This document shows positions 1,448-62,172 of a DNA stretch of 64,000 nt, in pieces. Origin of the DNA: Candidatus Daviesbacteria bacterium (GTDB taxonomy: Bacteria; Patescibacteriota; Microgenomatia; Daviesbacterales; UBA10151); contig JACPEW010000020.1 of assembly GCA_016183305.1 (NCBI GenBank), positions 4,247-68,246 on the forward strand, read 5' to 3'. A program made the position numbers and the translations under genes. How positions within the stretch are numbered: the stretch's first letter is position 1; each line of letters begins with the position of its first letter. Under the pieces are notes generated by a model that was not told the DNA's origin, made no database searches, and was given only the letters and a program-made list of their open reading frames with translations.

Positions 1448-1867
1448 TCAGTTACCGATGTCCTGAGGTTGCAAAAGGGTAATTTCCTTAAACTTTTTGA
1501 AGTCTTTATCAAAAGTAACGATCTTATTAATTTTATTTTCTAAGCAGACTGCCAGATGGATTAAATCCCTGCTGCTGGCATTTTTATAAATAGAAACATA
1601 TTTTAAGTAAATTTCTATGATGGACTGATCAATGGGTAGCAGACCGCTTAACAATTGAAGGGTTTGCTTAGCAGCTTCTAAACCTTCCTTCACCTGTTTA
1701 ACATTTTTACTGTAATGGATAATTTCCTGAATGGTTTCCGTTGAGGTCAGCAGTAAAATCTTTTCTTTTTTACAAAATTTAATAAACTTAAAACAAGAGA
1801 GATAATAGGGAGATGATTTGTCTGATAAATAGAGGAAAATATTGGTATCCAAGTACAGGCTATTCAT
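1448..1867 (-). CDS. vapC: PIN-domain toxin (VapC-like)
   Basis: LYLDTNIFLY near the N-terminus and TFDKDF near the C-terminus. ATG 1867 overlaps the upstream antitoxin stop (ATGAATAG). Confidence 0.75.
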   Translation of the reverse strand: MNSLYLDTNIFLYLSDKSSPYYLSCFKFIKFCKKEKILLLTSTETIQEIIHYSKNVKQVKEGLEAAKQTLQLLSGLLPIDQSIIEIYLKYVSIYKNASSRDLIHLAVCLENKINKIVTFDKDFKKFKEITLLQPQDIGN

Positions 1868-2096
1868 ACCTTTTTTCAAAGATCTTTTTCATCTGCCCAG
1901 GGCTTTGGGTTTTAATGCCAATAGATCCCATTCTTTTGGCAACTGTTTCTATATCAGGCTTGGAACCTTCCTCTAAAGGGATAATTTTGTATCTTTTATT
2001 GCTATCTTTTTTAATAATAGTCACTTCTTCTCCACCATCTATCATCTTAAAAACCTTAAATATCTGGTTGCGAAGTTCTGTCACATGCAGGATCAT
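1860..2096 (-). CDS. small antitoxin (Phd/YefM-like) paired with VapC
   Basis: 78 aa, overlaps the PIN gene start by 8 nt, the typical TA operon arrangement. The family assignment is tentative. Confidence 0.5.
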   Translation of the reverse strand: MILHVTELRNQIFKVFKMIDGGEEVTIIKKDSNKRYKIIPLEEGSKPDIETVAKRMGSIGIKTQSPGQMKKIFEKRYE

Positions 2097-2142
2097 ATGT
2101 ACATAGTGTACATGACAACTGTTATGCTGTCAAGATATTATT

Positions 2143-6235: not shown

Positions 6236-6520
6236 ATGAATAGGGTTATTGTTCAGGTTCCTATGTCAAAAGAGTTAAAAGAAAAGGCTGAAACAGTATC
6301 TTCTGATATGGGTTTTTCTTCCTTGCAAGAGATCATTAGATTGTTTCTTAATAAGATAGCTGCTGGTGAAGTTAATGTGAGATTTGAAGAAACAGTTAAG
6401 CTTTCACCAAAAGCTGTTAAACGTTACGATAAAATGATTGATGAGATAGAATCCGGGAAAGTTAAGACTGAAGAGTTTACTGATACAGATAGTTTGATGA
6501 AGTATTTAAATGATAATTAG
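6236..6520 (+). CDS. RelB/DinJ-like antitoxin
   Basis: 94 aa, N-terminal ribbon-helix-helix-like VIVQVPMSKELKEKAETV..SSLQEIIRLFL. Overlaps the downstream toxin start. Confidence 0.6.
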   Translation: MNRVIVQVPMSKELKEKAETVSSDMGFSSLQEIIRLFLNKIAAGEVNVRFEETVKLSPKAVKRYDKMIDEIESGKVKTEEFTDTDSLMKYLNDN

Positions 6521-6776
6521 GTTAGGTAAGAGGTTTAAAAAAGCTTACAAAACTAGAATTGCTTCTAATAAAAGATTAATTCTACAAGCAAAAGAGAGAA
6601 TTGATTTGTTTAGATCTGATCCTCAAAATCCCATTTTAAAAGATCATAGATTGTCCGGAGCCAAACGGGAATTACGTGCATTTTCTATTACAGGGGATAT
6701 CCGTTTAGTTTATTAACCAGTTTCAGAAGACGAAGTTATATTCTTAGATATTGGATCACACAACCAGGTGTATTAA
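6510..6776 (+). pseudogene. RelE/YafQ-family toxin with in-frame TAA
   Basis: ...LKDHRLSGAKRELRAFSITGDIRLVY-TAA(6714..6716)-PVSEDEVIFLDIGSHNQVY-TAA(6774..6776). The family-typical C-terminal strand lies after the first stop. Confidence 0.65.
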
Positions 6777-6777
6777 C

Positions 6778-6818
6778 TTTAGGTTCCCTCATTCCAGGAG
6801 GAGAGGTATTTTTTCTGT
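6778..6818 (-). pseudogene. orphan duplicate of the ahcY 3' end (12 codons plus stop)
   Basis: 39/41 identical to 8244..8284. Encodes QKKYLSSWNEGT-stop; both differences are synonymous. Confidence 0.9.
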
Positions 6819-7502: not shown

Positions 7503-7922
7503 CTACACCTGGGGTTTGTGATATAACTTTTTCAAATCTTGGTCAGAAGTCAGGAATTCATCAGGCTGAAAGTTTTGGATTTGAGTTAAAATTATTGAAT
7601 CAGTAAATTTGATATTTGATTGCCTGAAGATATTTAAGGCCTGTTCTAGACTGGGTTTGTCTTCTGTCAGTACTCCTTCCAGAGCGAGTAATTCTTCAAG
7701 AAACTCAATGATTAAATCTTTTGGTTGTTTATAAAAAGACCATAAAACCCACTCTATTTCCGGGAAAACAATATCAGGAATAAAAATTCTGACCTTATTC
7801 AAAACACAATTGTTTATTAAATGTAATGCTTGAGTAAATCCAGGCTCTCTTTTAAGACGGTAGTCCAGTAAAACATTGGTATCAACGGCTGCGATTTTTG
7901 TCATATGGTCGTTTATCCTCAA
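7503..7922 (-). CDS. vapC: PIN-domain toxin (VapC-like)
   Basis: AAVDTNVLLDY N-terminal acidic motif, PIN-size protein, overlaps the upstream AbrB-type antitoxin. Confidence 0.75.
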   Translation of the reverse strand: MRINDHMTKIAAVDTNVLLDYRLKREPGFTQALHLINNCVLNKVRIFIPDIVFPEIEWVLWSFYKQPKDLIIEFLEELLALEGVLTEDKPSLEQALNIFRQSNIKFTDSIILTQIQNFQPDEFLTSDQDLKKLYHKPQV

Positions 7923-8169
7923 TCCATTTTTCTACAGCTATCTTTTCAGCAATTTCCCTGATTTGTTTTAAAGATTTTCCATCATCCAGATGAGCAAGGT
8001 CACCGGCAAACTGTAAAATATCTGATTTTTTCCTGGGTCTGCCAATAAAACCACCATCCAGGGTAGGGTAAATATCTATTTTAGCGCCTCTTTTTAAACC
8101 CAGAGTGTCCCGTACTGGTTTAGGAAGGGTTAATTGATTTTTGGTAGTTAGAGTTGTAGTAAAATTCAT
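7882..8169 (-). CDS. AbrB/MazE/SpoVT-family antitoxin
   Basis: TTKNQLTLPKPVRDTLGLKRGAKIDI looped-hinge-helix signature. Confidence 0.7.
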   Translation of the reverse strand: MNFTTTLTTKNQLTLPKPVRDTLGLKRGAKIDIYPTLDGGFIGRPRKKSDILQFAGDLAHLDDGKSLKQIREIAEKIAVEKWIEDKRPYDKNRSR

Positions 8170-8244
8170 ACACGCTAATTATATAAAAATCTTACTTTAT
8201 TGTCAAATGCCTTACTTTAAATTAAATATCCTTACTTAATAATT

Positions 8245-9498
8245 TTAAGTCCCCTCATTCCAGGAGGAGAGGTATTTTTTCTGTTCCTCTGTGAGGGTAT
8301 CAATTTTAGTTCCCAAAGATTCTAACTTTAATTTAGCAATCATATCATCTAGCTCTCGTGGAATAGTATAAACTCCTGGTTTTAATTTACCCTTATGTTG
8401 AATCAAATATTCTGCTGCTAAGGCTTGGTTAGCAAAAGACATGTCCATCACATCAGGCGGATGGCCTTCTGCTGAGACTAAATTAATTAACCTGCCCTCA
8501 CCTAAAACAAAAACCTTTTTCCCATCCTTTAAAGTAATTTCTTCCAAATTAGACCTTAAAACCCTTCTATTTTTAGCAGCTTTTACCAAGCCTTCATAAT
8601 CAAATTCCACATTAAAATGGCCGGTATTACAAACAACTGCCCCATCTTTTAATGAAGTGAGCATTTTTAAAGGCAATACATCTTTATTGCCAGTAGCTGT
8701 GCAAATAATATCTGCTGATTTAATAGCCTCCTCCATTGGCATTACCTCAAATCCATCCATAACAGCCTCCAAAGCTTTTAGAGGATCTACCTCAGTAACT
8801 ATTACTTGTGCTCCCATCCCTCTGGCTCTGCTAGCCAAACCTCTGCCACACCATCCATAACCTGCCACCACAAACTTTTTCCCAGCCAGTAATACATTAG
8901 TAGCCCTGATTATTCCATCAATAGTAGACTGGCCAGTGCCATACCTGTTATCAAACATATGTTTGGTGTTTGAGTCATTGACAGCAATCACTGGAATTTT
9001 TAAAGCCCCGTCTTTTAACATAGCTTTAAGCCTGATTACTCCAGTGGTAGTTTCCTCAGATGAGCCTAAGACTTCCTTTAACTGTGACTTTCTTTCTGTA
9101 TGCAAAAGAGTAACCAAATCTGCCCCATCATCCATAGTAATTTGGGGTTTAAAGTCTAAAACAGCATTTAAGTGTTTATAATAAGTTTCTTTATCCTCAT
9201 CTCTGATAGCAAAAGTAGGGATATCAAAATCTTCTGATAAGGAGGCTGCTACCTCATCCTGGGTAGAAAGGGGATTGGAGGCACATAATGCTAATTTAGC
9301 TCCAGCGGTTTTCAAAGCAATCATGAGATTTGCTGTTTCACTCGTTACATGAAGGCAAGCTCCAATGGTTATGTCTTTGAGGGGTTTTTCCTTAGCAAAA
9401 TGCTTCTCTAAAAGCTCTAGGACCTTCATTTGTGATCCAGCCCACTCAATTTTTAATTTCCCAGCTTTTGCTAAATTTTTATCTTTAATATCGCTCAT
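8245..9498 (-). CDS. ahcY: adenosylhomocysteinase
   Basis: 417 aa, full-length similarity pattern to SAH hydrolases (EWAGSQM, NPLSTQD, TTTGV, NDS-TKH-FDNRYG, GYGWCGRG NAD site). Confidence 0.9.
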   Translation of the reverse strand: MSDIKDKNLAKAGKLKIEWAGSQMKVLELLEKHFAKEKPLKDITIGACLHVTSETANLMIALKTAGAKLALCASNPLSTQDEVAASLSEDFDIPTFAIRDEDKETYYKHLNAVLDFKPQITMDDGADLVTLLHTERKSQLKEVLGSSEETTTGVIRLKAMLKDGALKIPVIAVNDSNTKHMFDNRYGTGQSTIDGIIRATNVLLAGKKFVVAGYGWCGRGLASRARGMGAQVIVTEVDPLKALEAVMDGFEVMPMEEAIKSADIICTATGNKDVLPLKMLTSLKDGAVVCNTGHFNVEFDYEGLVKAAKNRRVLRSNLEEITLKDGKKVFVLGEGRLINLVSAEGHPPDVMDMSFANQALAAEYLIQHKGKLKPGVYTIPRELDDMIAKLKLESLGTKIDTLTEEQKKYLSSWNEGT

Positions 9499-19448: not shown

Positions 19449-19862
19449 TTAGAAAAAAGGGTTAATTATTCTAAGGCCTTGAAATTTCTTAAAATCAGAA
19501 ACATTATCTGTTGCTATCGTAGCTATCCCATTGCTTAAAGCAGTAGCTGCCAGGTATGCATAAAATATCCTATTACCAACCAGATTATGTTTTTTTATAA
19601 GTTCAAGAAATAGGTAATAAGAAGTTTGTGTAGGAGAAATTATCCGGCATGATTGCGTGATGGCCTGGGTAGCTGTTAGTGCCATATCTAAGCTCATTGG
19701 ATTAGAAAATTTTTGGTGAGTTAATACCCTGATAGTCTCTAAAATATTTTGATGGGCAATTTCTAAATTTCTTAAATTTTCTTGTAAAAATTGCTGGGAT
19801 TTTTTATGTTTAGGAGAATCAGTATTTATAGAGTAGATTAAAATATTACTATCAATGAGCAT
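19449..19862 (-). CDS. vapC: PIN-domain toxin (VapC-like)
   Basis: MLIDSNILIY start at 19862, 2 nt after the stop (19864..19866) of the upstream antitoxin reading frame. Confidence 0.7.
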   Translation of the reverse strand: MLIDSNILIYSINTDSPKHKKSQQFLQENLRNLEIAHQNILETIRVLTHQKFSNPMSLDMALTATQAITQSCRIISPTQTSYYLFLELIKKHNLVGNRIFYAYLAATALSNGIATIATDNVSDFKKFQGLRIINPFF

Positions 19863-19863
19863 T

Positions 19864-20260
19864 TTAAATCTTAGGGTCTTGGTAAAAATCGTCACGGGTT
19901 AAATTATCCAGAGGTTCTCCCAGGTGATGGGTTTTAAAGATGATTTTTTCAGCTTTTTTTGGCGTCTTTGTCTAAATATTCTTCCAGGGCCTGGTTAAAA
20001 ATTTCCTGCAAAGCGACATCGTCTTGCAAAGCTTTCCTTTCGGGCCTTTGTGGTTGTTGTGGATGACGGGTTAAATTTAACCTTCTTGGTTCAACTGGTG
20101 CTTCAGGGAGTCTTAAAACTAATGGCTCTTCCCGTTGTGGTCTTGGTTGTTGCCCTGACCTTCTTAAAATTAAGGGAGGCCTGTGTAAAGACCTGATAGT
20201 ATCTTCCATGGCTTTATATAATCCTTCCCCATCTGTAATAGGCCTTTCGTTTTCAGGCAT
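19864..20260 (-). pseudogene. antitoxin gene interrupted by a frameshift in an A7 run
   Basis: 103-aa ORF ends ...EEYLDKDAKKS-TGA. The +1 frame continues AEKIIFKTHHLGEPLDNLTRDDFYQDPKI-stop, abutting the vapC ATG. The shift is at 19954..19960. Confidence 0.55.
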
Positions 20261-44194: not shown

Positions 44195-45877
44195 ATGGTT
44201 AAACTTTTAGACTTTTGGGCTCCTTGGTGTGTAGATCCTCAAACTCCAGTATTAACAGAAAATGGTTATTTGCCTGCTTCAAAAATACAAGTTAATATAA
44301 ATCTACTAACAATTGATCCAAGAACGAAAAAACAGAGTCTTAAAAAGGTTAAAAAAATAAGAATTTTTAAGGATATTCCATCTAAGAGAATAATTTTGGA
44401 AACTGGAATAAATCTAATAGGAGATGTTAATCATCTGGTTTTAACCCAAGAAGGATTTAAGTCTTTAGGCAAGCTTAAGATTGGAGAGAGAGTTTTAATA
44501 AACCCTGTACAGGCTTCAGTTTTCGAACCGATTACTGATACAATCATACTGGAGACCACTGGGAATAATTTTGCTGATAAAGTTTTAAAAAGCTTAAACT
44601 TATTGCCTTTAAGATCAAATGATATCAGATTACCAGTTTTAGCAAGGTTGTTGGGCTTTGTAATGACCGATGGATATTATTTAAGACACAATATTTATGA
44701 AACACATTTTTTTATGGATACGGAAAAGGACGCTCAAGATATAAAAGCGGATTTACAAATTTTAGGTTTTGATAAATTGGAGATTAAACGACAGATCAAA
44801 AATCGCCAAATTGGAGAAAGAAAATTTACAATTAGCATTTTACGTTGTCGTAACTTGAACAAAGCAATATTTTTCTTGCTCAAAGCTTTAGGGGCTCCTG
44901 AAGGAAGAAAGAAAAATCAAGCTTATTTTATTTCGGATTGGATTATGGATGGAGAAAATTCTATTAAAAGAGCCTTTCTGAGTGGGTGGTTAGGTGGTGA
45001 TGGATGTAAAATCACCTATAGAGTAAAACACGAAGGAACAAGTTCTCATGATGCTGGATTTCATGTAAACGCAATCGAATTTCATAAAGAAAAAGAACTA
45101 GAGAAGGAAGGTATACTGTATGCTAAACAATTAGCAATTCTATTTGAGGAACTTGGAGTTGAGGTTAGAGATATATCAAGTAGCGGTGATGAGGATGGGG
45201 TTATTATATATCTTAGAGTTTCGAATTCTTATCCCTCACTACTAAATTTAACCAAGATTGGTTATGCCTATGCTTCGACTAAAAATAAACAAGTCCCCTT
45301 TATAAAGGAGTTTTTGAAGTATAGGTTGTTTGAACGAAGTAGTTATGCTGAGGTTAAAGAAATTGTTTTGAAGCAATTGGCGCTTGGAGTAAGTAATAGA
45401 AGTATAGCCGAAAATTTACAAATTCCTTTACATACAGTAGTCAGTTGGAGATATACAAGTCGCAATTCAAATATCTCGCATCCTTCTAACTCTGGTCAGG
45501 CGCTTTTTACAGAATGGTTGGAAGATAGGCAGGAAGGAAAATTATTGTGGGAAAAGGTAAAATTTATAGGTGATGCTGAGAATCGTGATGTAGTTGGTAT
45601 TACAGTAGCAAATCCCCATACGATTGTGACTAATGGAATAGTTTCTCATAATTGCGGTCCCTGCAGATTAATGAGTTCTATTATTGAAGAACTGGAGAAA
45701 GAATGGGCTGGGAAAGTAGAGGTAGAGAAAATTAATGTTGATGAATCTCCAGATAAAGCTTCTAAATATGGAGTAATGAGTATTCCTACTTTTATTGCCT
45801 TAAAAGATGAAAAAGAAGTAGGCAGGAAAATTGGAGTTACCGCCAAAGAAGATCTTCTTAAGTTGCTGCAATCATAA
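44195..45877 (+). CDS. trxA: thioredoxin precursor containing an intein
   Basis: Exteins MVKLLDFWAPW + CGPCRLMSSIIEELEKEW...YGVMSIPTFIALKDEKEVGRKIGV join to a WCGPC thioredoxin of 85 aa. Confidence 0.85.
   Translation: MVKLLDFWAPWCVDPQTPVLTENGYLPASKIQVNINLLTIDPRTKKQSLKKVKKIRIFKDIPSKRIILETGINLIGDVNHLVLTQEGFKSLGKLKIGERVLINPVQASVFEPITDTIILETTGNNFADKVLKSLNLLPLRSNDIRLPVLARLLGFVMTDGYYLRHNIYETHFFMDTEKDAQDIKADLQILGFDKLEIKRQIKNRQIGERKFTISILRCRNLNKAIFFLLKALGAPEGRKKNQAYFISDWIMDGENSIKRAFLSGWLGGDGCKITYRVKHEGTSSHDAGFHVNAIEFHKEKELEKEGILYAKQLAILFEELGVEVRDISSSGDEDGVIIYLRVSNSYPSLLNLTKIGYAYASTKNKQVPFIKEFLKYRLFERSSYAEVKEIVLKQLALGVSNRSIAENLQIPLHTVVSWRYTSRNSNISHPSNSGQALFTEWLEDRQEGKLLWEKVKFIGDAENRDVVGITVANPHTIVTNGIVSHNCGPCRLMSSIIEELEKEWAGKVEVEKINVDESPDKASKYGVMSIPTFIALKDEKEVGRKIGVTAKEDLLKLLQS
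44228..45652 (+). mobile_element. intein (475 aa) with LAGLIDADG homing-endonuclease domain
   Basis: Starts Cys (CVDPQTPVLTENG), block-B-like GDVNHLVLT, LAGLIDADG motifs LARLLGFVMTDGY and FLSGWLGGDGC, HTH (SNRSIAENLQIPLHTV). Ends VVGITVANPHTIVTNGIVSHN, followed by Cys+1. Confidence 0.85.
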
Positions 45878-52998: not shown

Positions 52999-54771
52999 AT
53001 GAATATACGGAATTTCTCAATAATTGCTCATGTTGATCATGGCAAATCAACCTTAGCAGATAGGTTGCTGGAAATAACTGGTACTATACCTAAAGATAAG
53101 CTGCAGCCTCAGCTTCTAGATTCTTTGGCTTTGGAACGTGAACGCGGTATTACTATTAAGCTTGCTCCTGTCCGTATGTCTTACATTCTGAATTCTGAAT
53201 TATACATTCTAAATTTAATTGATACTCCTGGCCATGTTGACTTCTCCTATGAAGTTTCCAGGGCTTTGGCAGCAGTAGAAGGAGCGATATTGTTAGTTGA
53301 TGCTACTCAGGGAATTCAGGCTCAAACTCTGGCTCATGGTTTAGCTGCTTTAGAGCAAAACCTAACTTTGATACCTGTTATTAATAAAATCGATTTACCA
53401 AATGCTGATATAGAAAATACCAAAAATCAACTGATGGAAACTTTTGGTTTTTCTGATGAAGAAATACTGCTTGTTTCTGGTAAGACTGGTCAGGGTGTGG
53501 ATAAATTACTAGAGATAATTGTAACTAAGGTTCCGCCGCCAAAGCAGGAAATAGGAAATGCTTTAAGAGCTTTAATTTTTGATTCATTTTTTGACAGCTT
53601 CAAAGGAGTAGTTGCCCAAGTTAGGATTGTAGAAGGCCAAACTCCGCCAAATCAAACTCCAATTGTATTTTTAGGTACAAAAGCGTCGGGGTATGTTTTA
53701 GAAAGTGGTTTTTTTGCTCCGCAGTTAACACCGGAAAATGGTTTAAAATCAGGCGAGATAGGCTATATTGCTACAGGGATTAAAGAGCCAGATTTAGTAA
53801 GAGTTGGTGACACTATTGCCACAGATTTTTCTTCTCAGCCTTTGCCTGGATACAAGCAAGTAAAACCAATGGTTTTTGTGGGGCTTTTCCCAATAGATGC
53901 AGATAAATATTTTGAACTTAAAGAAGTGCTGGGAAAATTTAAGTTAACTGATCCAGCTTTTTCTTATCTGCCGGAACAGTCACAAGCTTTGGGAGCAGGT
54001 TTTAGATGCGGGTTTTTAGGTTTGCTTCATGCTGAAGTTGTTCAGGAAAGATTATCTAAAGAGTTTAATATGGATGTGCTGGCTACTGCTCCCTCAGTAG
54101 AATATTTGCTGGATGATCAGCCAATTACTTCGCCTACTGAACTTACCGAGGGAGACAATACTAAAAATCTAAAAGAGCCTTGGGTAAACCTTAGGATCTT
54201 TGTACCACAAACTTATATTGGTCCAGTTATGGAATTAGTGCAGGATAAAAGAGGAAAGTTTTTAGATATGCAGCATTTTGGGTTACAAGTTGAGTTAAGT
54301 TATGAAATGCCTTTATCTGAGATGGTGACTAATTTTTATGATAAACTAAAATCAGTTTCCTCAGGTTTTGCTTCTTTGGATTGGGCATTGATAGATTTTA
54401 GGGAGGTAAATGCAGTAAGGGTAGATATCATGGTGGGAGGAGAAAAAGTAGATGCCCTGTCTTCTATTATTTTTAAGCCTAAGGCAGAAAGTTTTGGCAG
54501 GCAGATAGTGGAGAAATTAAAAGAAGTTTTACCCAGGCAAAATTTTTCAGTAGCAATACAGGCTGCTATTGGGGGAACTATTATTGCCAGAGAGACAATT
54601 TCACCATTTAGAAAAGATGTTTTGATGCATGGTAGCAAGGTCGTTGGCGGAGGGGACTACAGCCGCAAGAGAAAACTTTTGGAAAAACAGAAAAAAGGCA
54701 AAAAGAAAATGAAAATGATCGGTAAAGTGGAAATCCCCCAAGAGGCGTTCTTGTCAATTCTTAAGAGTTAG
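52999..54771 (+). CDS. lepA: translation elongation factor 4
   Basis: IRNFSIIAHVDHGKSTLADR, DTPGHVDF, NKIDL and the LepA C-terminal domain. Confidence 0.95.
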   Translation: MNIRNFSIIAHVDHGKSTLADRLLEITGTIPKDKLQPQLLDSLALERERGITIKLAPVRMSYILNSELYILNLIDTPGHVDFSYEVSRALAAVEGAILLVDATQGIQAQTLAHGLAALEQNLTLIPVINKIDLPNADIENTKNQLMETFGFSDEEILLVSGKTGQGVDKLLEIIVTKVPPPKQEIGNALRALIFDSFFDSFKGVVAQVRIVEGQTPPNQTPIVFLGTKASGYVLESGFFAPQLTPENGLKSGEIGYIATGIKEPDLVRVGDTIATDFSSQPLPGYKQVKPMVFVGLFPIDADKYFELKEVLGKFKLTDPAFSYLPEQSQALGAGFRCGFLGLLHAEVVQERLSKEFNMDVLATAPSVEYLLDDQPITSPTELTEGDNTKNLKEPWVNLRIFVPQTYIGPVMELVQDKRGKFLDMQHFGLQVELSYEMPLSEMVTNFYDKLKSVSSGFASLDWALIDFREVNAVRVDIMVGGEKVDALSSIIFKPKAESFGRQIVEKLKEVLPRQNFSVAIQAAIGGTIIARETISPFRKDVLMHGSKVVGGGDYSRKRKLLEKQKKGKKKMKMIGKVEIPQEAFLSILKS

Positions 54772-54778
54772 ATTAGGT

Positions 54779-55462
54779 CTAGTTAACGAATTTAAAAGTT
54801 GAGACCAGCACACCAAACTGATCTTCATCTTCTTTATATAAGAGACTGCCAGAAGTAATTGTATATATTAAGTTCTTGTTCTTTATAAACACTAATTTAG
54901 ATTTATAACCTTTTGGTAGTGGCGAACCTTTGGTCTGAAAATACGATTTCTGCTTCCTTATGATTTCGTCTGTAACTTCATAGTCGACCGCGACAGCGCT
55001 ACGTCCATCAACTAAAATATCATGGTAATTTTGATCTGGTAAAAATTCTATATAAGGTTTAAGACCGCTTTTTTTAACATAATCCTTAACATTGACATCT
55101 TGATCTAACTTGTTTACATTTATTGAAATTTCTATATTGTAAAGTTGATTATCAGTTTGTGAGCCTCCCGGGGGTATAAATTTTATCCATCCATATTGGT
55201 ATGTATCATCAATAGGACTGTATCCTTCCTGAAAAGTACTGTCCTTAGGATATTTAAATGCAAAATTAAATCTTGGATTTAAATAAATATGCCACCCTTT
55301 AGTCTTAGGATTTTCTATTTTTTGATCCCATAAAATTTGAGGTTGTTTATATAAATTGGGGGTTGTCCATTTATAATAGCTGAAGCCTAAATAAAAACTT
55401 ACCGGTGATAAAACCAATAGTATTCCAATTAAAATAATTTTATTTTTATTATATTTTTTCAT
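54779..55462 (-). CDS. hypothetical anchored protein (slot-1 cargo of the lepA-ldcA array)
   Basis: 227 aa, N-terminal TM, C-terminal ...LVSTFKFVN; paralog of 39407..40057. Confidence 0.45.
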   Translation of the reverse strand: MKKYNKNKIILIGILLVLSPVSFYLGFSYYKWTTPNLYKQPQILWDQKIENPKTKGWHIYLNPRFNFAFKYPKDSTFQEGYSPIDDTYQYGWIKFIPPGGSQTDNQLYNIEISINVNKLDQDVNVKDYVKKSGLKPYIEFLPDQNYHDILVDGRSAVAVDYEVTDEIIRKQKSYFQTKGSPLPKGYKSKLVFIKNKNLIYTITSGSLLYKEDEDQFGVLVSTFKFVN

Positions 55463-55502
55463 CTATTTTATAGTAGCATTATTTTAAAGTAATTACAAAA
55501 TT

Positions 55503-55590
55503 TTGTATAATACTTCCATAAAATTAGTAAAGCCGTCTAAATTAAATATTGGGAGTACTGTTGAAATTGTAGCTCTTTCTTTGCCAACAC
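55503..55590 (+). pseudogene. diverged fragment of the ldcA promoter and 5' end (copy 1)
   Basis: ttgtataat...ATA AAA TTA GTA AAG CCG TCT AAA TTA AAT ATT GGG AGT ACT GTT... aligns base-for-base with 58577..58664. ATG is replaced by ATA. Confidence 0.8.
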
Positions 55591-55595
55591 GAAAG

Positions 55596-55856
55596 CTAAT
55601 TGTATGTTTGGGTGGTACAGCGTTTGATATCAACAATTAAGATAACTTTAATAGTAAGGTCAATATCTAAGAAGATTCTGTAGTTGCCAGTTCTAATTCT
55701 GTGGCTAGTTTGATGAGGAGGTTTAAGCTTTTTAATATCTAAACTAAAAGGATTCTGCTTTATCTTTCCAAAAAAGGTCTTAATATACACTTGATCTTTT
55801 GACGGAAACCTCTTGAAGGACTTGACTGCATTTTTGGAAAAGTTTATCTGGAACAC
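55596..55856 (-). CDS. relE: RelE/ParE-family toxin
   Basis: ...HRIRTGNYRIFLDIDLTIKVILIVDIKRCTTQTY, the typical RelE/StbE C-terminal half. Confidence 0.7.
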   Translation of the reverse strand: MFQINFSKNAVKSFKRFPSKDQVYIKTFFGKIKQNPFSLDIKKLKPPHQTSHRIRTGNYRIFLDIDLTIKVILIVDIKRCTTQTYN

Positions 55857-55857
55857 T

Positions 55858-56160
55858 CTAGATGTCTAGTTCTTCCCATATTTTTTCTGCGGGGATGCCA
55901 CCATGCTTTTTTACATCAGCTAGAGCTTTATTTAATTTTTTGACAAACTTTGGATCATAGTCTGCCAGGTCATCTTTTAATTCCTTGATTCTTATATACG
56001 TTTCAATATCTACTAAAACCCCTTTTGGCTTGCCATTTTGAGTTATTACCATTTCTTTTTCTTTTGGTAATTTGCTTAAGATATCAGTGAGCTGCTTTCT
56101 TAGATCATCAGCACCGATAAATTTTTTGTCCAGTAATGAATACAGATTAATTGTTTGCAT
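55858..56160 (-). CDS. Phd/YefM-family antitoxin
   Basis: 100 aa, DDLRKQLTDILSKL.....VITQNGKPKGVLV; stop abuts the toxin start. Confidence 0.7.
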   Translation of the reverse strand: MQTINLYSLLDKKFIGADDLRKQLTDILSKLPKEKEMVITQNGKPKGVLVDIETYIRIKELKDDLADYDPKFVKKLNKALADVKKHGGIPAEKIWEELDI

Positions 56161-56243
56161 TAGGATATCATAACATATTCCTTAGGATTGTAAAGAATTA
56201 AATTTGCACAGGGCTTTAAATAGCGAGCGTCATATCTAATAAA

Positions 56244-56288
56244 GTGAAAATATCCCAAGAAGCATTTTTAAGTATCCTCAAGAGTTGA
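56244..56288 (+). pseudogene. diverged fragment of the lepA 3' end (copy 2)
   Basis: Encodes VKISQEAFLSILKS-stop versus VEIPQEAFLSILKS-stop of lepA (54727..54771). About 30/45 nt identical, with most differences synonymous. Confidence 0.8.
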
Positions 56289-56292
56289 CAAG

Positions 56293-56313
56293 TAATGTAT
56301 AATGTATAATGTA
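56293..56313 (+). repeat. (TAATGTA)x3 between a TTGACA box and the vapB start
   Basis: ttgaca(56285..56290)-ag-taatgta-taatgta-taatgta, with the last 'a' being the A of ATG 56313. Confidence 0.95.
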
Positions 56314-56594
56314 TGATTAGAAAACAGATATACCTGACACCCGAAATAGATAGAGAATTGAATATTCTTGCCAGACAGCAGGGTAAAAGCATGGCTGAAA
56401 TTGTCAGGGATATTCTAGAGAAAAGGCTAAAAATTAGCGAGAGACCAAAAAATACTGTTGAAGGTTTCTTAAATAGGATAACAGGAATTGGTAAGAAAGG
56501 CCCCCATGATTTATCTACAAACCTATTCAATTATCTGTATGGTGACAAGTCCCCTAATTATGGTAAACACAAGAAAATTACTCGTAGACGCTGA
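56313..56594 (+). CDS. vapB: ribbon-helix-helix (CopG/VapB-type) antitoxin
   Basis: MIRKQIYLTPEIDRELNILARQQGKSMAEIVRDILEKRL. Confidence 0.7.
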   Translation: MIRKQIYLTPEIDRELNILARQQGKSMAEIVRDILEKRLKISERPKNTVEGFLNRITGIGKKGPHDLSTNLFNYLYGDKSPNYGKHKKITRRR

Positions 56595-56982
56595 TGCTTT
56601 TGTGGCATTGGTTTGTCAAAATGATTCCAGTCACCAAAGGGCGGAAATTTTTCAAGAGCAAATTATCAAAGACAACTTTGAATTAATAGTTTCTGATCCA
56701 GCATTTGGAGAAGCAATAACAGTTATTAGTCAGAAAGAAGGTTTAAGGGTTGCTGTTAAATTTGCGGATGAGGTATTTGCCAGTCCACTAGAAATTATTG
56801 AGGTTGATCCGGCATTGCGCAAAGAGGGGTTGGATATTTTTAAAAAGCAAACTTCCAAAAATTCCAGGTTTACTGATTGTATTAATATGGCAATTATGAA
56901 AAAATTAGGCCTTAATACTATCTTCAGTTTTGATGTCCAATACAAAAAAAATAAATTTAAAAGATTTGGAGTAGATAAATGA
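56560..56982 (+). CDS. vapC: PIN-domain toxin (VapC-like)
   Basis: MVNTRKLLVDADAFVALV..., C-terminal FTDCINMAIM...IFSFD. Start chosen at ATG 56560. Confidence 0.7.
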   Translation: MVNTRKLLVDADAFVALVCQNDSSHQRAEIFQEQIIKDNFELIVSDPAFGEAITVISQKEGLRVAVKFADEVFASPLEIIEVDPALRKEGLDIFKKQTSKNSRFTDCINMAIMKKLGLNTIFSFDVQYKKNKFKRFGVDK

Positions 56983-57038
56983 AAGTTTTAAAGCCTTCTA
57001 AATTAAATATTGGGGATTACTATTGGGATTATGGCTTA
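56979..57038 (+). pseudogene. diverged, frameshifted fragment of the ldcA 5' end (copy 2)
   Basis: ATG AAA GTT TTA AAG CCT TCT AAA TTA AAT ATT GGG GAT t ACT ATT GGG ATT ATG GCT aligns with 58592..58650. Confidence 0.8.
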
Positions 57039-57040
57039 AT

Positions 57041-57301
57041 CTAGTGATAAGTTTGGGTGGTGCGACGCTCTATTTCTACTATTTCAATTATCTTAATTTC
57101 AAAGTCAATTCTCAGAAAGATTCTGTAATCTCCGACCCTCAATCTATGCGTGGCTTGGTAATAAGATGATAATTTTCTAAGATCCAGATCAAACGGACTA
57201 AGGCTTAATCTATCTGATGCTTTTTTAATTTTAACTTGGTAATCAATAGGGATTTTCTTTAAAGACTTAAGAGCTTTTTTAGAAAAGGTAATTTGATACA
57301 C
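57041..57301 (-). CDS. relE: RelE/ParE-family toxin (second copy)
   Basis: ...HRLRVGDYRIFLRIDFEIKIIEIVEIERRTTQTY. GTG 57301 mirrors the start position of copy 1. Confidence 0.7.
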   Translation of the reverse strand: MYQITFSKKALKSLKKIPIDYQVKIKKASDRLSLSPFDLDLRKLSSYYQATHRLRVGDYRIFLRIDFEIKIIEIVEIERRTTQTYH

Positions 57302-57303
57302 TT

Positions 57304-57606
57304 TTAAATACCTAGTTGTTTCCAAACTTTCTCTGCAGGAATACCGCCATGCTTTTTAATTTCCTCAACAGCCTTGTTAACTTTTTTAATAAGTTTAGGA
57401 TCAAAATCCGCTATTTGTTCATACAATTCTTCTATTTCAAGATAAGATTTAATGTCTAAAAGTACCCCTTTTGGCTTGCCATTTTGAGTTATTACTATTT
57501 CTTTTTCTTTTGGTAATTTGCTTAAGATATCAGTGAGCTGCTTTCTTAGATCATCAGCACCGATAAATTTTTTGTCCAGTAATGAATACAAATTAATTGT
57601 TTGCAT
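57304..57606 (-). CDS. Phd/YefM-family antitoxin (second copy)
   Basis: The first 36 residues are identical to 55858..56160; the C-terminal half is diverged. Confidence 0.7.
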   Translation of the reverse strand: MQTINLYSLLDKKFIGADDLRKQLTDILSKLPKEKEIVITQNGKPKGVLLDIKSYLEIEELYEQIADFDPKLIKKVNKAVEEIKKHGGIPAEKVWKQLGI

Positions 57607-57829
57607 TAGGATATCATAACATATTCCTTAGGATTGTAAAGAATTAAATTTGCACAGGGCTTTAAACGGGCGTTATAATCACTAGCAGAAAACCCCGCTT
57701 TCTTGCAATTTGTAAAACAAATTGGGTGCGTTAAGCAGGGATGAATGCTTTTGTGATTACAGTCTTCCGTGGGGTAGGTGGTAGAGTGGTAGATCTGGAT
57801 AGGGTTTTCTGTAGTTTCTTGTAAACTTT

Positions 57830-57859
57830 CAAAGAAAACCGCGGGCTTTCAGCCCGCGG
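57830..57859 (-). terminator. GC-rich hairpin with a T-tract on the minus strand
   Basis: ccgcgggct-ttc-agcccgcgg (57839..57859). The minus strand continues ttttctttg. Confidence 0.45.
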
Positions 57860-57904
57860 AAGTTTATAGTTAAAAAAAGAAAAAGATTTAAAAAATAGAA
57901 ATCC

Positions 57905-57948
57905 CCCAGAAGCACTCTTGAGTATTCTTAAATCGTAAAAGGTAGAAG
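57905..57948 (+). pseudogene. diverged, frameshifted fragment of the lepA 3' end (copy 3)
   Basis: atagaaatcccccagaagcactcttgagtattcttaaatcgtaa. Restoring one A gives IEIPQEALLSILKS-stop. Confidence 0.75.
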
Positions 57949-57995
57949 CTTACAAAATAATTGAATTACTGGTTAACTTATGAGACAGTTAAAAT

Positions 57996-58523
57996 ATGAA
58001 AGAAAGAGGTTTTACTTCAATATTATTTATATTCATCATATTGGTAATCTCAGCAGGGATTATTAGTGGGGCTTTTTACATTAAACAATCTAATCTTTCC
58101 AACAAGCAACTTAATAAGCAGCCTGAGGCTTATGTTAACACAACATCGATTGATCAACCTGCGCAACCTTCTTTAGAATCTTCACCGATTCAGTCTGCAA
58201 AACTAGACCAAGCACCAAAATCTGCTGTATCAAACAATGAAGCTGCTAGGTTTACTGGAATGATTACAGAGACTAACAATAGTTGTTGGGTAGATGGAGT
58301 GTGTAGTGTTAAAATTGATAGTTCATGGGTTGAAGTGGAAAGAGGTGGTTTAAGGCCTCCGAATATGATGGGAGAACCTGGCGGACAATTAATTGGAATA
58401 TCTTTTAGTTCTGATACTGAAAAGTATATTGGCCAAAAAGCAGAATTCTACGGCGCCAAAAAAGATGATGGAAGCTTTACAATTTATGGTAACTCTAATT
58501 ACTATCTAAAGTTAGTTAACTAA
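57996..58523 (+). CDS. hypothetical anchored protein (slot-3 cargo)
   Basis: 175 aa, N-terminal TM helix, Q/S/P-rich linker. Confidence 0.45.
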   Translation: MKERGFTSILFIFIILVISAGIISGAFYIKQSNLSNKQLNKQPEAYVNTTSIDQPAQPSLESSPIQSAKLDQAPKSAVSNNEAARFTGMITETNNSCWVDGVCSVKIDSSWVEVERGGLRPPNMMGEPGGQLIGISFSSDTEKYIGQKAEFYGAKKDDGSFTIYGNSNYYLKLVN

Positions 58524-58591
58524 TAATTTGATAAAACAATCATTATTAGTTGTTGTTATATCAACGAAATACTACATTGTATAATGCTTAA

Positions 58592-59521
58592 ATGCAGATT
58601 TTGAGACCTTCTAAATTAAATATTGGGGATACTGTGGGGATTGTGGCTTCTTCTTTGCCAGTTCTGCCTGTTTTTAAAGAAAGTTATGAAAGGGGCAAAA
58701 AAATACTTGCAGACTTAGGATTTAAGATCAAAGAAGGGGAAACTATTGGCAAAATCAGGTGGTGGGCTGCCGGAACACCAAAAGAGGTGGCAGCAGATAT
58801 AAATAAGATGTTTGCTGATAAAAGCATAAAAGCTATTATGGCTCAAACCGGTGGATACTCTGCTTTTTCTGTTTTGGAATATTTAGACTATGAACTTGTA
58901 ACTGCTAACCCAAAACCTTTTATTGGTATGAGCGATGTAACCAATTATTTAATGGCTTTTTTTACCAAATGCAGTATGGTTGGATTCCATATGGATGATG
59001 TTTTACACCTCAATAAAGAACTTTTCTTAAGATTTTTAACAAAAACTAAAGTACCGGGTAAAATTAAACCTTTAACTGAATGGGATGAGTGGAAAAAAGG
59101 CCAAACAGGAGGACATTTAATGGGTGGAAACTTGCATTTATTTTCTGGTTTAATAGGAACTGAATATTTTCCTAAGCCAGAATTTTTTGATGGGGCAATA
59201 CTGTTTTGGGAAGAAGTTGGGGAACCTTTACACAGCATTGCCAGGTTTTTAACCCAGCTAAAATATGCTGGAATTTTAGACAGGATTACCGGTATGCTGA
59301 TCGGTAAAATTACCCATATTAAACCAGCCAGGGAAAAAGAAGTAATAGAACCAACAGCAAAAGAGCTGGTTTTGGATATTTTAAAAGATTATAAATTCCC
59401 TGTTATGGCTAATATGGATTTTGGCCATTTTACAGTTAATATTCCAATGCCTATAGGAACAAAAGTTTCCTTTGATACTTCCAAATCAGAATTAAACTTT
59501 TTAGAATCAGCTGTAGCCTAA
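58592..59521 (+). CDS. ldcA: LD-carboxypeptidase (peptidase S66, LdcA/MccF family)
   Basis: LNIGDTVGIVASS, GGYSA, GMSDVT (nucleophile Ser), DFGH (His) pattern. Confidence 0.75.
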   Translation: MQILRPSKLNIGDTVGIVASSLPVLPVFKESYERGKKILADLGFKIKEGETIGKIRWWAAGTPKEVAADINKMFADKSIKAIMAQTGGYSAFSVLEYLDYELVTANPKPFIGMSDVTNYLMAFFTKCSMVGFHMDDVLHLNKELFLRFLTKTKVPGKIKPLTEWDEWKKGQTGGHLMGGNLHLFSGLIGTEYFPKPEFFDGAILFWEEVGEPLHSIARFLTQLKYAGILDRITGMLIGKITHIKPAREKEVIEPTAKELVLDILKDYKFPVMANMDFGHFTVNIPMPIGTKVSFDTSKSELNFLESAVA

Positions 59522-61581: not shown

Positions 61582-62172
61582 ATGTCAGATTTAACTGATC
61601 GGCAGCAAGCACTAAGGCAGCCTCATACTTCTGCAGGCAGAGCTCCTACATCTATGGGAATGAAGTTTTATATTGCTTCCTTGATGAAGGAAAAGACCTT
61701 GCCCGTGACAGCTGAAGTTTCTATTAAAGAGAAACTGATGGCAAATAGGTTTAAGCAGGAAAGATTAGTAAAAGAAGCAGTAACAGCTTTGGCCCAGAGG
61801 TTGGATATGTTAGGTTTGGCAATTGATGATGAAGGGATAGTCTATTATGCTGGAGCTGCCAATATCTTGGATTGGCCGGAGTTTTATGATATTGATGTAA
61901 CCAGATTTGTGCTGTCTTTATTTGATGAAAACCCAAGGTTGAGGGAGATTATTGGGAAAGCAGTTGGGACTGACCCAATCCATATTTTGTTTGGTGAAGA
62001 TATGGAGTTTGAGTACCTTAGGCCAACAGGTTTTGTTTTTACAAAATATGATGCAAGAGGAGACAAAACTGGGGTTATTGGAGTGATTGGTCCAGCCAGG
62101 ATGAATTTTTCTTTAGTGTTGCCTTATGTAAAATATGTCAGGAATTTGTTAAGCGAAGCAGTTAGAATATAG
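61582..62172 (+). CDS. hrcA: truncated HrcA-like protein lacking the N-terminal winged-helix domain
   Basis: MSDLTDRQQA joined directly to LRQPHTSAGRAPT. C-terminal GVIGVIGPARMNFSLVLPYV matches the HrcA C-terminus. 196 aa versus about 340 in B. subtilis HrcA. Confidence 0.7.
   Translation: MSDLTDRQQALRQPHTSAGRAPTSMGMKFYIASLMKEKTLPVTAEVSIKEKLMANRFKQERLVKEAVTALAQRLDMLGLAIDDEGIVYYAGAANILDWPEFYDIDVTRFVLSLFDENPRLREIIGKAVGTDPIHILFGEDMEFEYLRPTGFVFTKYDARGDKTGVIGVIGPARMNFSLVLPYVKYVRNLLSEAVRI

Follow-up and report, generated by a model that had tools for sequence, protein, structure and literature searches.

Between the intact genes for elongation factor 4 (lepA) and LD-carboxypeptidase (ldcA), an uncultured groundwater bacterium of Candidatus Daviesbacteria (candidate phyla radiation, CPR; Microgenomates) carries a stacked array of toxin-antitoxin (TA) cassettes, orphan genes and short, silent pieces of both flanking genes. 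We analysed this array in a 64-kb stretch of DNA (the window), which is part of an 83,743-nt NCBI contig from a metagenome-assembled genome (MAG). The array is real, and a second scar of the same kind was found at ahcY in the same window. We regard gene-end displacement by homology-anchored illegitimate recombination, with serial addition of cassettes at a lepA-ldcA hotspot, as the probable explanation, and hold this view with guarded confidence.

Between the two intact flanks lie two extra lepA 3' fragments (b and c), two extra ldcA 5' fragments (a and b), two relE/phd modules, one vapBC module and two orphan genes (Table 1), and the proteins from LepA (MBI2315242) to LdcA (MBI2315250) bear consecutive NCBI accessions. 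The original prediction, made from the letters of the DNA, had described pieces of lepA, cargo genes and pieces of ldcA stacked with relE/phd modules, and every feature that it listed was found where it had been placed or a few bases away. The relE/phd and vapBC genes form adjacent antitoxin/toxin pairs (PhdYeFM_antitox with ParE_toxin, RHH_1 with PIN) and are putative type II TA modules; an operator-like palindrome, TCCTTAGGA, lies in the phd promoter. The start codon of ldcA fragment a is changed from ATG to ATA and three conserved residues are altered, and its promoter-like site reads TTTAAA-17-TATAAT (55483-55511). The TGA stop of lepA fragment b forms part of the -35 box (TTGACA) of the vapB promoter, and the ATG of ldcA fragment b overlaps the vapC stop, its frame being broken by a 1-nt insertion. 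In the promoters of ldcA, vapB and phd (58577-58594, 56285-56315 and 56161-56194), the -10 boxes lie only 2-9 nt before the start codons, which suggests leaderless or nearly leaderless mRNAs for these genes.

We compared these components with 160 fetched loci of relatives (loci and contigs are cited by L numbers). The window lepA is 84% identical to its best relative, and the window ldcA shares 91% DNA identity with that of L166. For the vapBC module, identity is 96.9% to the copy in L166 and 66-80% (blastn) to those of L011, L104, L124 and L167. The relE1/phd1 module shares 77% DNA identity with the module behind lepA in L007, and relE2/phd2 shares 74-75% with the lepA-adjoining modules of L041, L010, L051 and L083. 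The 227-aa open reading frame (ORF) had itself as its sole database match and no homolog in the 160 loci, and the 175-aa gene had one distant tblastn match (L080).

The physical order of the array was compared with second assemblies, namely the per-run Logan assemblies (k=31) of six sequencing runs of the same project. Contigs L161-163 matched the window at 54511..56047 with 100% identity. L169 and L170 corresponded to 55478-56808 and 55453-56659, both at 99.5-99.6%, and spanned ldcA fragment a, relE1/phd1, lepA fragment b and vapBC in that order. L168 matched 56018-57493 at 99.5% and held lepA fragment b, vapBC, ldcA fragment b and relE2/phd2, while L165 matched 57839-59400 at 100% and included lepA fragment c. 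Three of the four suspect junctions were reproduced, together with the right-hand part of the fourth, which answers the concern, voiced with the original prediction, that the tandem structure might be a strain-collapse misassembly. It is highly improbable that the array is an assembly artefact in which single-slot alleles of co-occurring strains were chained through a shared relE/phd repeat. The two modules do share a near-identical 203-nt tract that is a potential chimera point, strain-level single-nucleotide polymorphisms are present in the samples, and one stretch of the window, 57494-57838, has no independent assembly. Against this, all the odd junctions (ldcA fragment to relE1; phd1 to lepA fragment to vapBC; vapC to ldcA fragment to relE2; and hairpin to lepA fragment to 175-aa gene to ldcA) lie in unique sequence and were recovered at 99.5-100% in k=31 assemblies of six separate runs. 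Because the fragment junctions sit in unique sequence, a chimera inside the tract could change how many units there are or how they are ordered but could not give rise to the fragments.

Two further features of the Logan contigs were noted. L164 (SRR12113428) ends exactly at window position 55588, where the homology of ldcA fragment a ends, and L169 and L170 traverse the 203-nt tract (56018-56220) without the break that two relE/phd copies would be expected to cause. On the basis of these contigs, some samples may also contain shorter forms of the array.

The gene-end fragments were detected with nhmmer profiles built from the relatives' 75-nt lepA 3' ends and 120-nt ldcA 5' ends. Their DNA identity to the resident gene was 71% for lepA fragment b, 71% for lepA fragment c, 74% for ldcA fragment a and 83% for ldcA fragment b, and the differences showed a synonymous excess, with ratios of nonsynonymous to synonymous divergence (pN/pS) of 0.14, 0.45, 0.43 and 0.48, respectively. 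Both ldcA fragments have the clade-consensus residues K2 and K5, and the resident ldcA has an unusual MQILRP. The closest DNA matches of the fragments were intact genes of other genomes: ldcA fragment b best matched the ldcA of L081 (90%), and ldcA fragment a was 81% identical to L008/L113-117, above its identity to the resident gene. The fragments also carry inactivating or damaging changes, comprising a lost start codon, two 1-nt indels and changes of conserved residues. The synonymous bias, the foreign nearest matches and these lesions together indicate that the fragments diverged inside working genes elsewhere and were silenced afterwards; judged by their substitutions, they are foreign alleles that evolved under selection in other lineages. 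An origin in orthologous loci elsewhere, and not in local duplication and decay, had been predicted, and the dN/dS-type comparison proposed with it (pN/pS 0.14-0.48) and the consensus N-termini bear this out. Of the readings given for the fragments, 'IEIPQEALLSILKS' for lepA fragment c merges two frames across the 1-nt deletion.

That the lepA-ldcA interval was tandemly duplicated in place, with later decay and turnover of cargo, is scarcely credible on this evidence. In topology the layout does match a tandem duplication whose join points are occupied by relE/phd; however, the divergence of the copies is biased to synonymous sites, the fragments are nearer to the clade consensus and to foreign alleles than to the resident genes, and the three cargo sets are mutually unrelated. 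We therefore rejected local duplication as largely refuted by the synonymous bias, the foreign-allele likeness and the unrelated cargo. L166 was considered, and rejected, as the donor of ldcA fragment b: its vapBC has 96.9% identity to the window copy, whereas over the first 57 nt of ldcA its identity to the fragment is only ~77%. It is at the cassette boundary, with the first base of ldcA, that the similarity of the window to L166 drops. A comparable extra ldcA fragment was absent from the other fetched loci searched with the same profiles.

Gene order was examined in ~100 Daviesbacteria loci, in which murJ, lepA, a variable interval, ldcA, a gene for a 234-aa protein and a major facilitator superfamily (MFS) transporter gene keep the same succession. 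The interval between lepA and ldcA ranges from 3 bp to 4.9 kb and is very diverse in content. A small membrane protein is encoded in 27 of the examined intervals, relE/phd lies directly behind lepA in many loci, and other intervals hold vapBC, methyltransferases or a reverse-transcriptase-like gene. The last of these, an ORF with a YCDD motif at 14939-15805 of L049, stands beside relE/phd in the longest interval (4.9 kb), which contains no integrase; this ORF suggests that the hotspot also collects defence-type genes.

Single-slot alleles with different cargo, as had been expected from the array, were found among these relatives. Intact lepA is followed directly by vapBC in L011, L104 and L167, where the lepA TGA lies inside the vapB -35 box TTGACA just as on fragment b, and in L166 vapBC abuts an intact ldcA, the two overlapping by ATGA just as vapC and ldcA fragment b do in the window. 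For the 227-aa and 175-aa genes, no homologs attached to an intact lepA or ldcA were found elsewhere. Displaced lepA 3' fragments were detected in ~10 other loci (L011, L013, L022, L029, L040, L041, L101, L105/106/108 and L124). The order in L011 is lepA, vapBC, fragment, relE/phd and ldcA, and L124 has two fragments in the order lepA, fragment, vapBC, fragment and relE/phd. These fragments differ from their resident end mostly at synonymous sites; in L011, 20/20 amino acids are identical at a DNA identity of only ~80%. The left boundaries of the lepA fragments fall between -28 and -67, with no core common to all. The fragments of L011 and L013 start at ATGAAAAT, the same 8-mer as at the ldcA start, which suggests a microhomology joint.

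Two small motifs recur among the relatives. A conserved ~46-nt element, GTTTATCCTGAGCG(AACGAAGTG)AGTCGAAGGAAA, stands between the lepA stop and the displaced fragment in five genomes (Table 1). A perfect 16-nt palindrome, AATGATTTAAATCATT, lies ~10-25 nt past the relE stop in L005, L041, L049, L101 and L107 and is absent from the window copies.

All gene termini in the window were scanned for displaced copies, and one further case was found, at ahcY (S-adenosylhomocysteine hydrolase). The two ahcY 3' copies are identical at 42/45 nt and both coding differences are synonymous. A mazE-like/PIN module stands behind ahcY, and 680 nt of GC-rich DNA (42-45%) with no recognisable gene separate it from the displaced fragment. 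The ahcY scar shows that the process is not tied to the lepA sequence or to the lepA-ldcA interval, and the earlier confinement of the process to that locus falls with it. Beyond the ahcY fragment lies a convergent relB/yafQ-like pair (6236-6716). Up to seven putative TA modules were recognised in the 64 kb, those at 1448-2106 and 19449-20260 having a Pfam match for the PIN toxin only. Several of them abut the 3' ends of housekeeping genes, as does a PIN gene that ends 3 nt past the groEL stop (19446).

The two relE/phd copies of the array share a 203-nt tract that differs at 2 positions and covers the N-terminal codons of phd, its promoter and operator and ~60 nt beyond, whereas the modules outside this tract are only 64% identical. 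At the two variable sites, Logan contigs from different runs do not all agree. The contrast between tract and remainder indicates recent, perhaps ongoing, recombination between the copies. The tracts bound a repeat whose period is exactly 1,446 bp, and the middle unit so defined comprises lepA fragment b, vapBC, ldcA fragment b and relE2. Its fragments are less decayed than the outer ones, and this, with the 96.9% identity of vapBC to L166 and the near-identical bounds, suggests that the middle unit is the youngest part of the array. It may have entered, or may leave, by crossover in the 203-nt tract.

These features bear directly on the mechanism first proposed, two successive Campbell-type integrations of circles of ~1.5 kb. 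In that account, circles of ~1.4-1.5 kb carrying relE/phd and a foreign lepA 3' end, cargo and ldcA 5' end would integrate by host homologous recombination and could leave again through recombination between the repeats. We consider this possible but unlikely. The exact 1,446-bp period bounded by 203-nt tracts with 2 mismatches agrees with it, as do the fresher look of the middle-unit fragments and the identity of vapBC to L166 (96.9%, with ldcA at 91%), which suggests recent transfer. L161-163 end exactly 30 nt inside the repeat common to both relE/phd copies, and L168 is 1,446 + 30 nt long with the same 30-mer at both ends, that is, a cycle in the k=31 assembly graph. Such a cycle is what a k=31 graph produces for any repeat-bounded unit, so that the sequence is the same whether the unit is a tandem copy or a free 1,446-bp circle, and the cycle is no direct evidence of a circle. 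Circular intermediates have been proposed for the displacement of rhs tips (PMC2935791). The longest exact runs shared with the resident gene are 7 and 11 nt in the lepA fragments, too short for RecA, 18 and 27 nt in the ldcA fragments, which is borderline, and 203 nt in relE/phd, which suffices. Since the lepA fragments have such short runs and had diverged before joining, a Campbell crossover inside them is unlikely, which leaves the relE/phd tract, and perhaps the 27-nt ldcA run, as usable sites. Circles moreover presuppose an existing junction of ldcA fragment and relE without explaining its origin, and L011, L013 and L029 show single-cassette insertions without relE/phd and without an ldcA fragment. 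Of the two integrations, what stands is a possible circle for the middle 1,446-bp unit; crossover in the lepA fragments does not. The idea that a TA module plus a foreign allele is the general unit was contradicted by relatives with one-cassette steps, such as lepA, vapBC and lepA fragment in L011.

A further question is whether a site-specific recombinase acted in trans on integrase-less passenger cassettes (cis-mobilisable, integron or XerCD-dif-like) at attachment sites (att) in the 3' ends of lepA and ahcY, the enzyme being encoded elsewhere in the genome. Short direct repeats of a gene 3' end around an insert are the classic signature of an integrase, as for phage 21 and e14 in icd, and such repeats flank the inserts here, those of ahcY at 42/45 identical nt. 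The cassette boundaries are also precise in many contexts (relE stop, vapC stop, vapB -35 box), and in the five genomes with the ~46-nt conserved element the join is always at -40 despite differing downstream cargo. Nevertheless, we judge this explanation very unlikely. The spread of left boundaries from -28 to -67, with no core common to all copies, makes a single att core unlikely, and the window copies share different 7-8-mers with the resident end. A repeat search at the window cassette boundaries returned no repeated att- or dif-like motif. Moreover, a genome with two unrelated target genes would call for two specificities, and the ldcA 5' fragments would be left unexplained. No integrase, transposase or other recombinase domain was found in window ORFs of at least 75 aa across the 64 kb, and no integrase or recombinase was evident among the lepA-ldcA interval ORFs of relatives, in keeping with the earlier description of the locus as integrase-less.

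Under the preferred explanation, gene-end displacement adds small cassettes, for the most part TA modules, at the lepA-ldcA hotspot. DNA of a related lineage would be taken up, plausibly by natural transformation, and would pair with the recipient through a conserved flanking gene or a resident relE/phd module, while its other, non-homologous end would be joined illegitimately at or just inside the end of a flanking gene. The incoming DNA would bring a working gene end together with its own neighbouring cassette, and the recipient's old gene end, or the donor's carried-over flank, would stay behind as a silent fragment. At least three such events would lie behind the window array, the middle 1,446-bp unit having entered, or last been homogenised, through recombination in the 203-nt relE/phd tract. 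How the DNA entered, in what sequence the events took place, that the joints are illegitimate and that the TA modules have any stabilising role are matters of inference. The window contains PilN, PilO and AddAB-like nuclease/helicase genes (competence-type pilus and recombination), and natural competence and transformation have been demonstrated in Patescibacteria (PMC10633639).

Several observations weigh against this explanation. The two joints between an ldcA fragment and relE concern different alleles and different ldcA positions (+88 and +60), yet each is found no more than 9 nt from the relE stop. Such clustering is unlike random illegitimate joints and hints at defined cassette ends or a preferred break site. 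The displaced fragments are all short (70 nt or less), a length that the model does not predict. The order of events rests on a handful of substitutions. A sliding-window nearest-neighbour comparison revealed no mosaic break in lepA, an analysis with no power at the ~80% DNA identity of the nearest relatives. No exact donor of the ldcA fragments emerged, as 0/120 best LdcA homologs had the same N-terminus, and no donor carrying the 227-aa or 175-aa gene was found. As to the joints themselves, microhomology could be read at ATGAAAAT in L011 and L013; divergence makes those of the window illegible. Because the stop codons of relE and lepA overlap in relatives, the 8-10 nt that precede relE in the window may be all that is left of a displaced lepA end.

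Table 1. Positions of the array components, the ahcY scar, the shared tracts and the recurrent element (window coordinates unless a locus is named)
Feature	Position	Strand	Evidence and remarks
Intact lepA (elongation factor 4), left conserved flank	52999..54771	+	Pfam GTP_EFTU, EFG_C, LepA_C; MBI2315242
Cargo 1, 227-aa orphan ORF	54779..55462	-	Weak PsbP-like match; N-terminal hydrophobic segment
ldcA promoter and dead 5' fragment a	55483..55588	+	nhmmer E = 4e-11
relE1, phd1 (putative TA module)	55596-55856, 55858-56160	-	Pfam ParE_toxin (weak), PhdYeFM_antitox
203-nt tract, copy 1	56018..56220		phd N-terminal codons, promoter/operator, ~60 nt beyond
Dead lepA 3' fragment b	56243..56288	+	VKISQEAFLSILKS followed by stop; nhmmer E = 2e-5
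Cargo 2, vapB, vapC (putative TA module)	56313-56594, ~56563-56982	+	Pfam RHH_1, PIN
Dead ldcA 5' fragment b	56979..57038	+	MKVLKPSKLNIGD, then 1-nt insertion; nhmmer E = 4e-10
relE2, phd2 (putative TA module)	57041-57325, 57304-57606	-	Pfam ParE_toxin, PhdYeFM_antitox
203-nt tract, copy 2	57464..57666		2 mismatches to copy 1
Spacer, ~230 nt	57667..57895		No homolog in the fetched loci; no Rfam family
Dead lepA 3' fragment c	57896..57948	+	nhmmer E = 5e-5; 1-nt deletion, F-to-L change
Cargo 3, 175-aa orphan ORF	57996..58523	+	N-terminal hydrophobic segment; no Pfam family; MBI2315249
Intact ldcA (LD-carboxypeptidase), right conserved flank	58592..59521	+	Pfam Peptidase_S66, S66C
ahcY (S-adenosylhomocysteine hydrolase)	8245-9498	-	3' end 8240-8284
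mazE-like/PIN module behind ahcY	7503-8169		Pfam
Displaced ahcY 3' fragment	6774-6818	-	tblastn 12/12 residues, E = 1e-5
Putative TA modules of the window	1448-2106, 6236-6716, 7503-8169, 19449-20260, 55596-56160, 56313-56982, 57041-57606
~46-nt element of relatives	L022 4610-4652; L040 2731-2773; L041 11749-11794; L101 1463-1496; L124 6763-6808

The spacer at 57667-57895 had no homolog in any fetched locus and matched no Rfam family. Its fold z-score was -2.7, a plus-strand promoter-like site lies at 57651-57679, and a 9-bp GC hairpin within it (57839-57859) reads as a minus-strand terminator. Rfam scans at gathering thresholds and tRNA/tmRNA scans of the whole window returned nothing, and Rfam at relaxed thresholds gave only chance-level matches in 57600-57960. 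Two genes elsewhere in the window were also noted. The HrcA ORF at 61582-62172 encodes 196 aa as against 242 aa in L166 (4852-5580), so its start may be miscalled or the gene truncated. A 560-aa ORF at 44195-45877 has a C-terminal thioredoxin domain and a weak intein-splicing match over residues 44-486, and may be an intein-containing thioredoxin.

CPR bacteria (Patescibacteria) have tiny genomes with few recognisable mobile elements and highly variable gene content, and how they gain genes is poorly understood. The lepA-ldcA locus offers a readable record in which cassettes of related lineages came to stand beside conserved genes, each step being marked by a displaced gene end. With the scar present at ahcY and in ~10 other Daviesbacteria loci, displaced ends could serve as a genome-wide marker for counting and dating acquisitions, and the TA modules that sit at the join points can serve as portable stretches of homology. 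Circles, if they exist, would constitute an integrase-free mobile cassette. A wider version of that idea, which we think rather unlikely, is that TA units of ~1.4 kb, bounded by conserved gene-end scraps, loop out through resident TA copies and re-enter competent relatives at the ends of housekeeping genes; the ends would act as portable address labels, and the TA modules would both mediate recombination and penalise loss. If true, streamlined genomes without classical mobile elements would thereby have a general means of gaining genes.

Among known systems, chromosomal integron arrays and the pdif modules of Acinetobacter likewise hold small cassettes, with or without promoters of their own and including TA modules, in which new members push old ones along. 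The array differs from them in that neither intI, attI and attC nor boundary sites of XerC/D type were found, and its separators are gene-end fragments of variable length. The window showed no integrase domain and no repeated imperfect palindromes at the cassette boundaries. Repeat search likewise gave no repeated 28-nt XerC/XerD-type motif at the boundaries; five relatives have the 16-nt palindrome AATGATTTAAATCATT beside relE. The constant core or boundary and the local recombinase of an integrase island were likewise not found (boundaries from -28 to -67; 64-kb window). At integration hotspots such as the minimal mobile elements of Neisseria, an exchange swaps one cassette for another and is not known to stack cassettes or to leave flank fragments. 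These elements and other hotspots flanked by core genes (PMC1797815, PMC3787668) resemble the present locus in placing different whole-gene cassettes between a constant pair of conserved genes and in exchanging them by way of flanking homology without mobility genes.

Homology-facilitated illegitimate recombination of naturally transformable bacteria (PMC3240628), a candidate process here, combines one homologous with one illegitimate end, and the short microhomology at some joints here (ATGAAAAT in L011 and L013) accords with it. Classic events of this type usually delete recipient DNA, whereas short duplications remain here; the clustering of joints at the relE stop would also be unexpected. 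The same type of recombination has been held responsible for type VI effector-immunity arrays (PMC5361080). Those arrays, like the present one, grow stepwise from a conserved upstream anchor, shift older modules downstream with 3'-end remnants and involve no integrase (none was found in our window). They differ in retaining immunity genes of obvious selective value, whereas self-contained TA pairs and orphan genes are found here, and the anchor here is a translation factor gene.

The likeness is also close to the arrays of rhs and contact-dependent inhibition (CDI) genes (PMC2935791, PMC3150448). In both, silent 3' fragments, some with frameshifts, follow an intact gene in a string, and each of them retains a piece of the conserved end joined to its own downstream module, and the insertion of exogenous DNA displaces the incumbent end. 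Silent fragments of a gene's own 3' end with different modules occur here at lepA (b and c), at ahcY (one), in L124 (two) and in L011 and others (one). As in the rhs and CDI systems, the same modules are attached to intact genes in other genomes, which for vapBC was seen in L011, L104, L167 and L166. In rhs and CDI, the variable module forms the C-terminal portion of the protein itself and the displaced piece is a polymorphic toxin domain; here, the displaced piece is the conserved end (VEIPQEAFLSILKS) of the housekeeping genes lepA, ahcY and ldcA, and what varies is a separate cassette (relE/phd, vapBC or an orphan gene). The fragments here are only 28-88 nt long, pieces of both flanking genes (3' end of one, 5' end of the other) occur in one array, and the host belongs to the CPR. 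We class the array as one of end-displacement type, at housekeeping genes and with TA cassettes, in a CPR bacterium; the Campbell-circle mechanism and TA stabilisation are unproven. So understood, the locus extends the logic of end displacement beyond rhs, CDI and type VI arrays to ordinary housekeeping genes.

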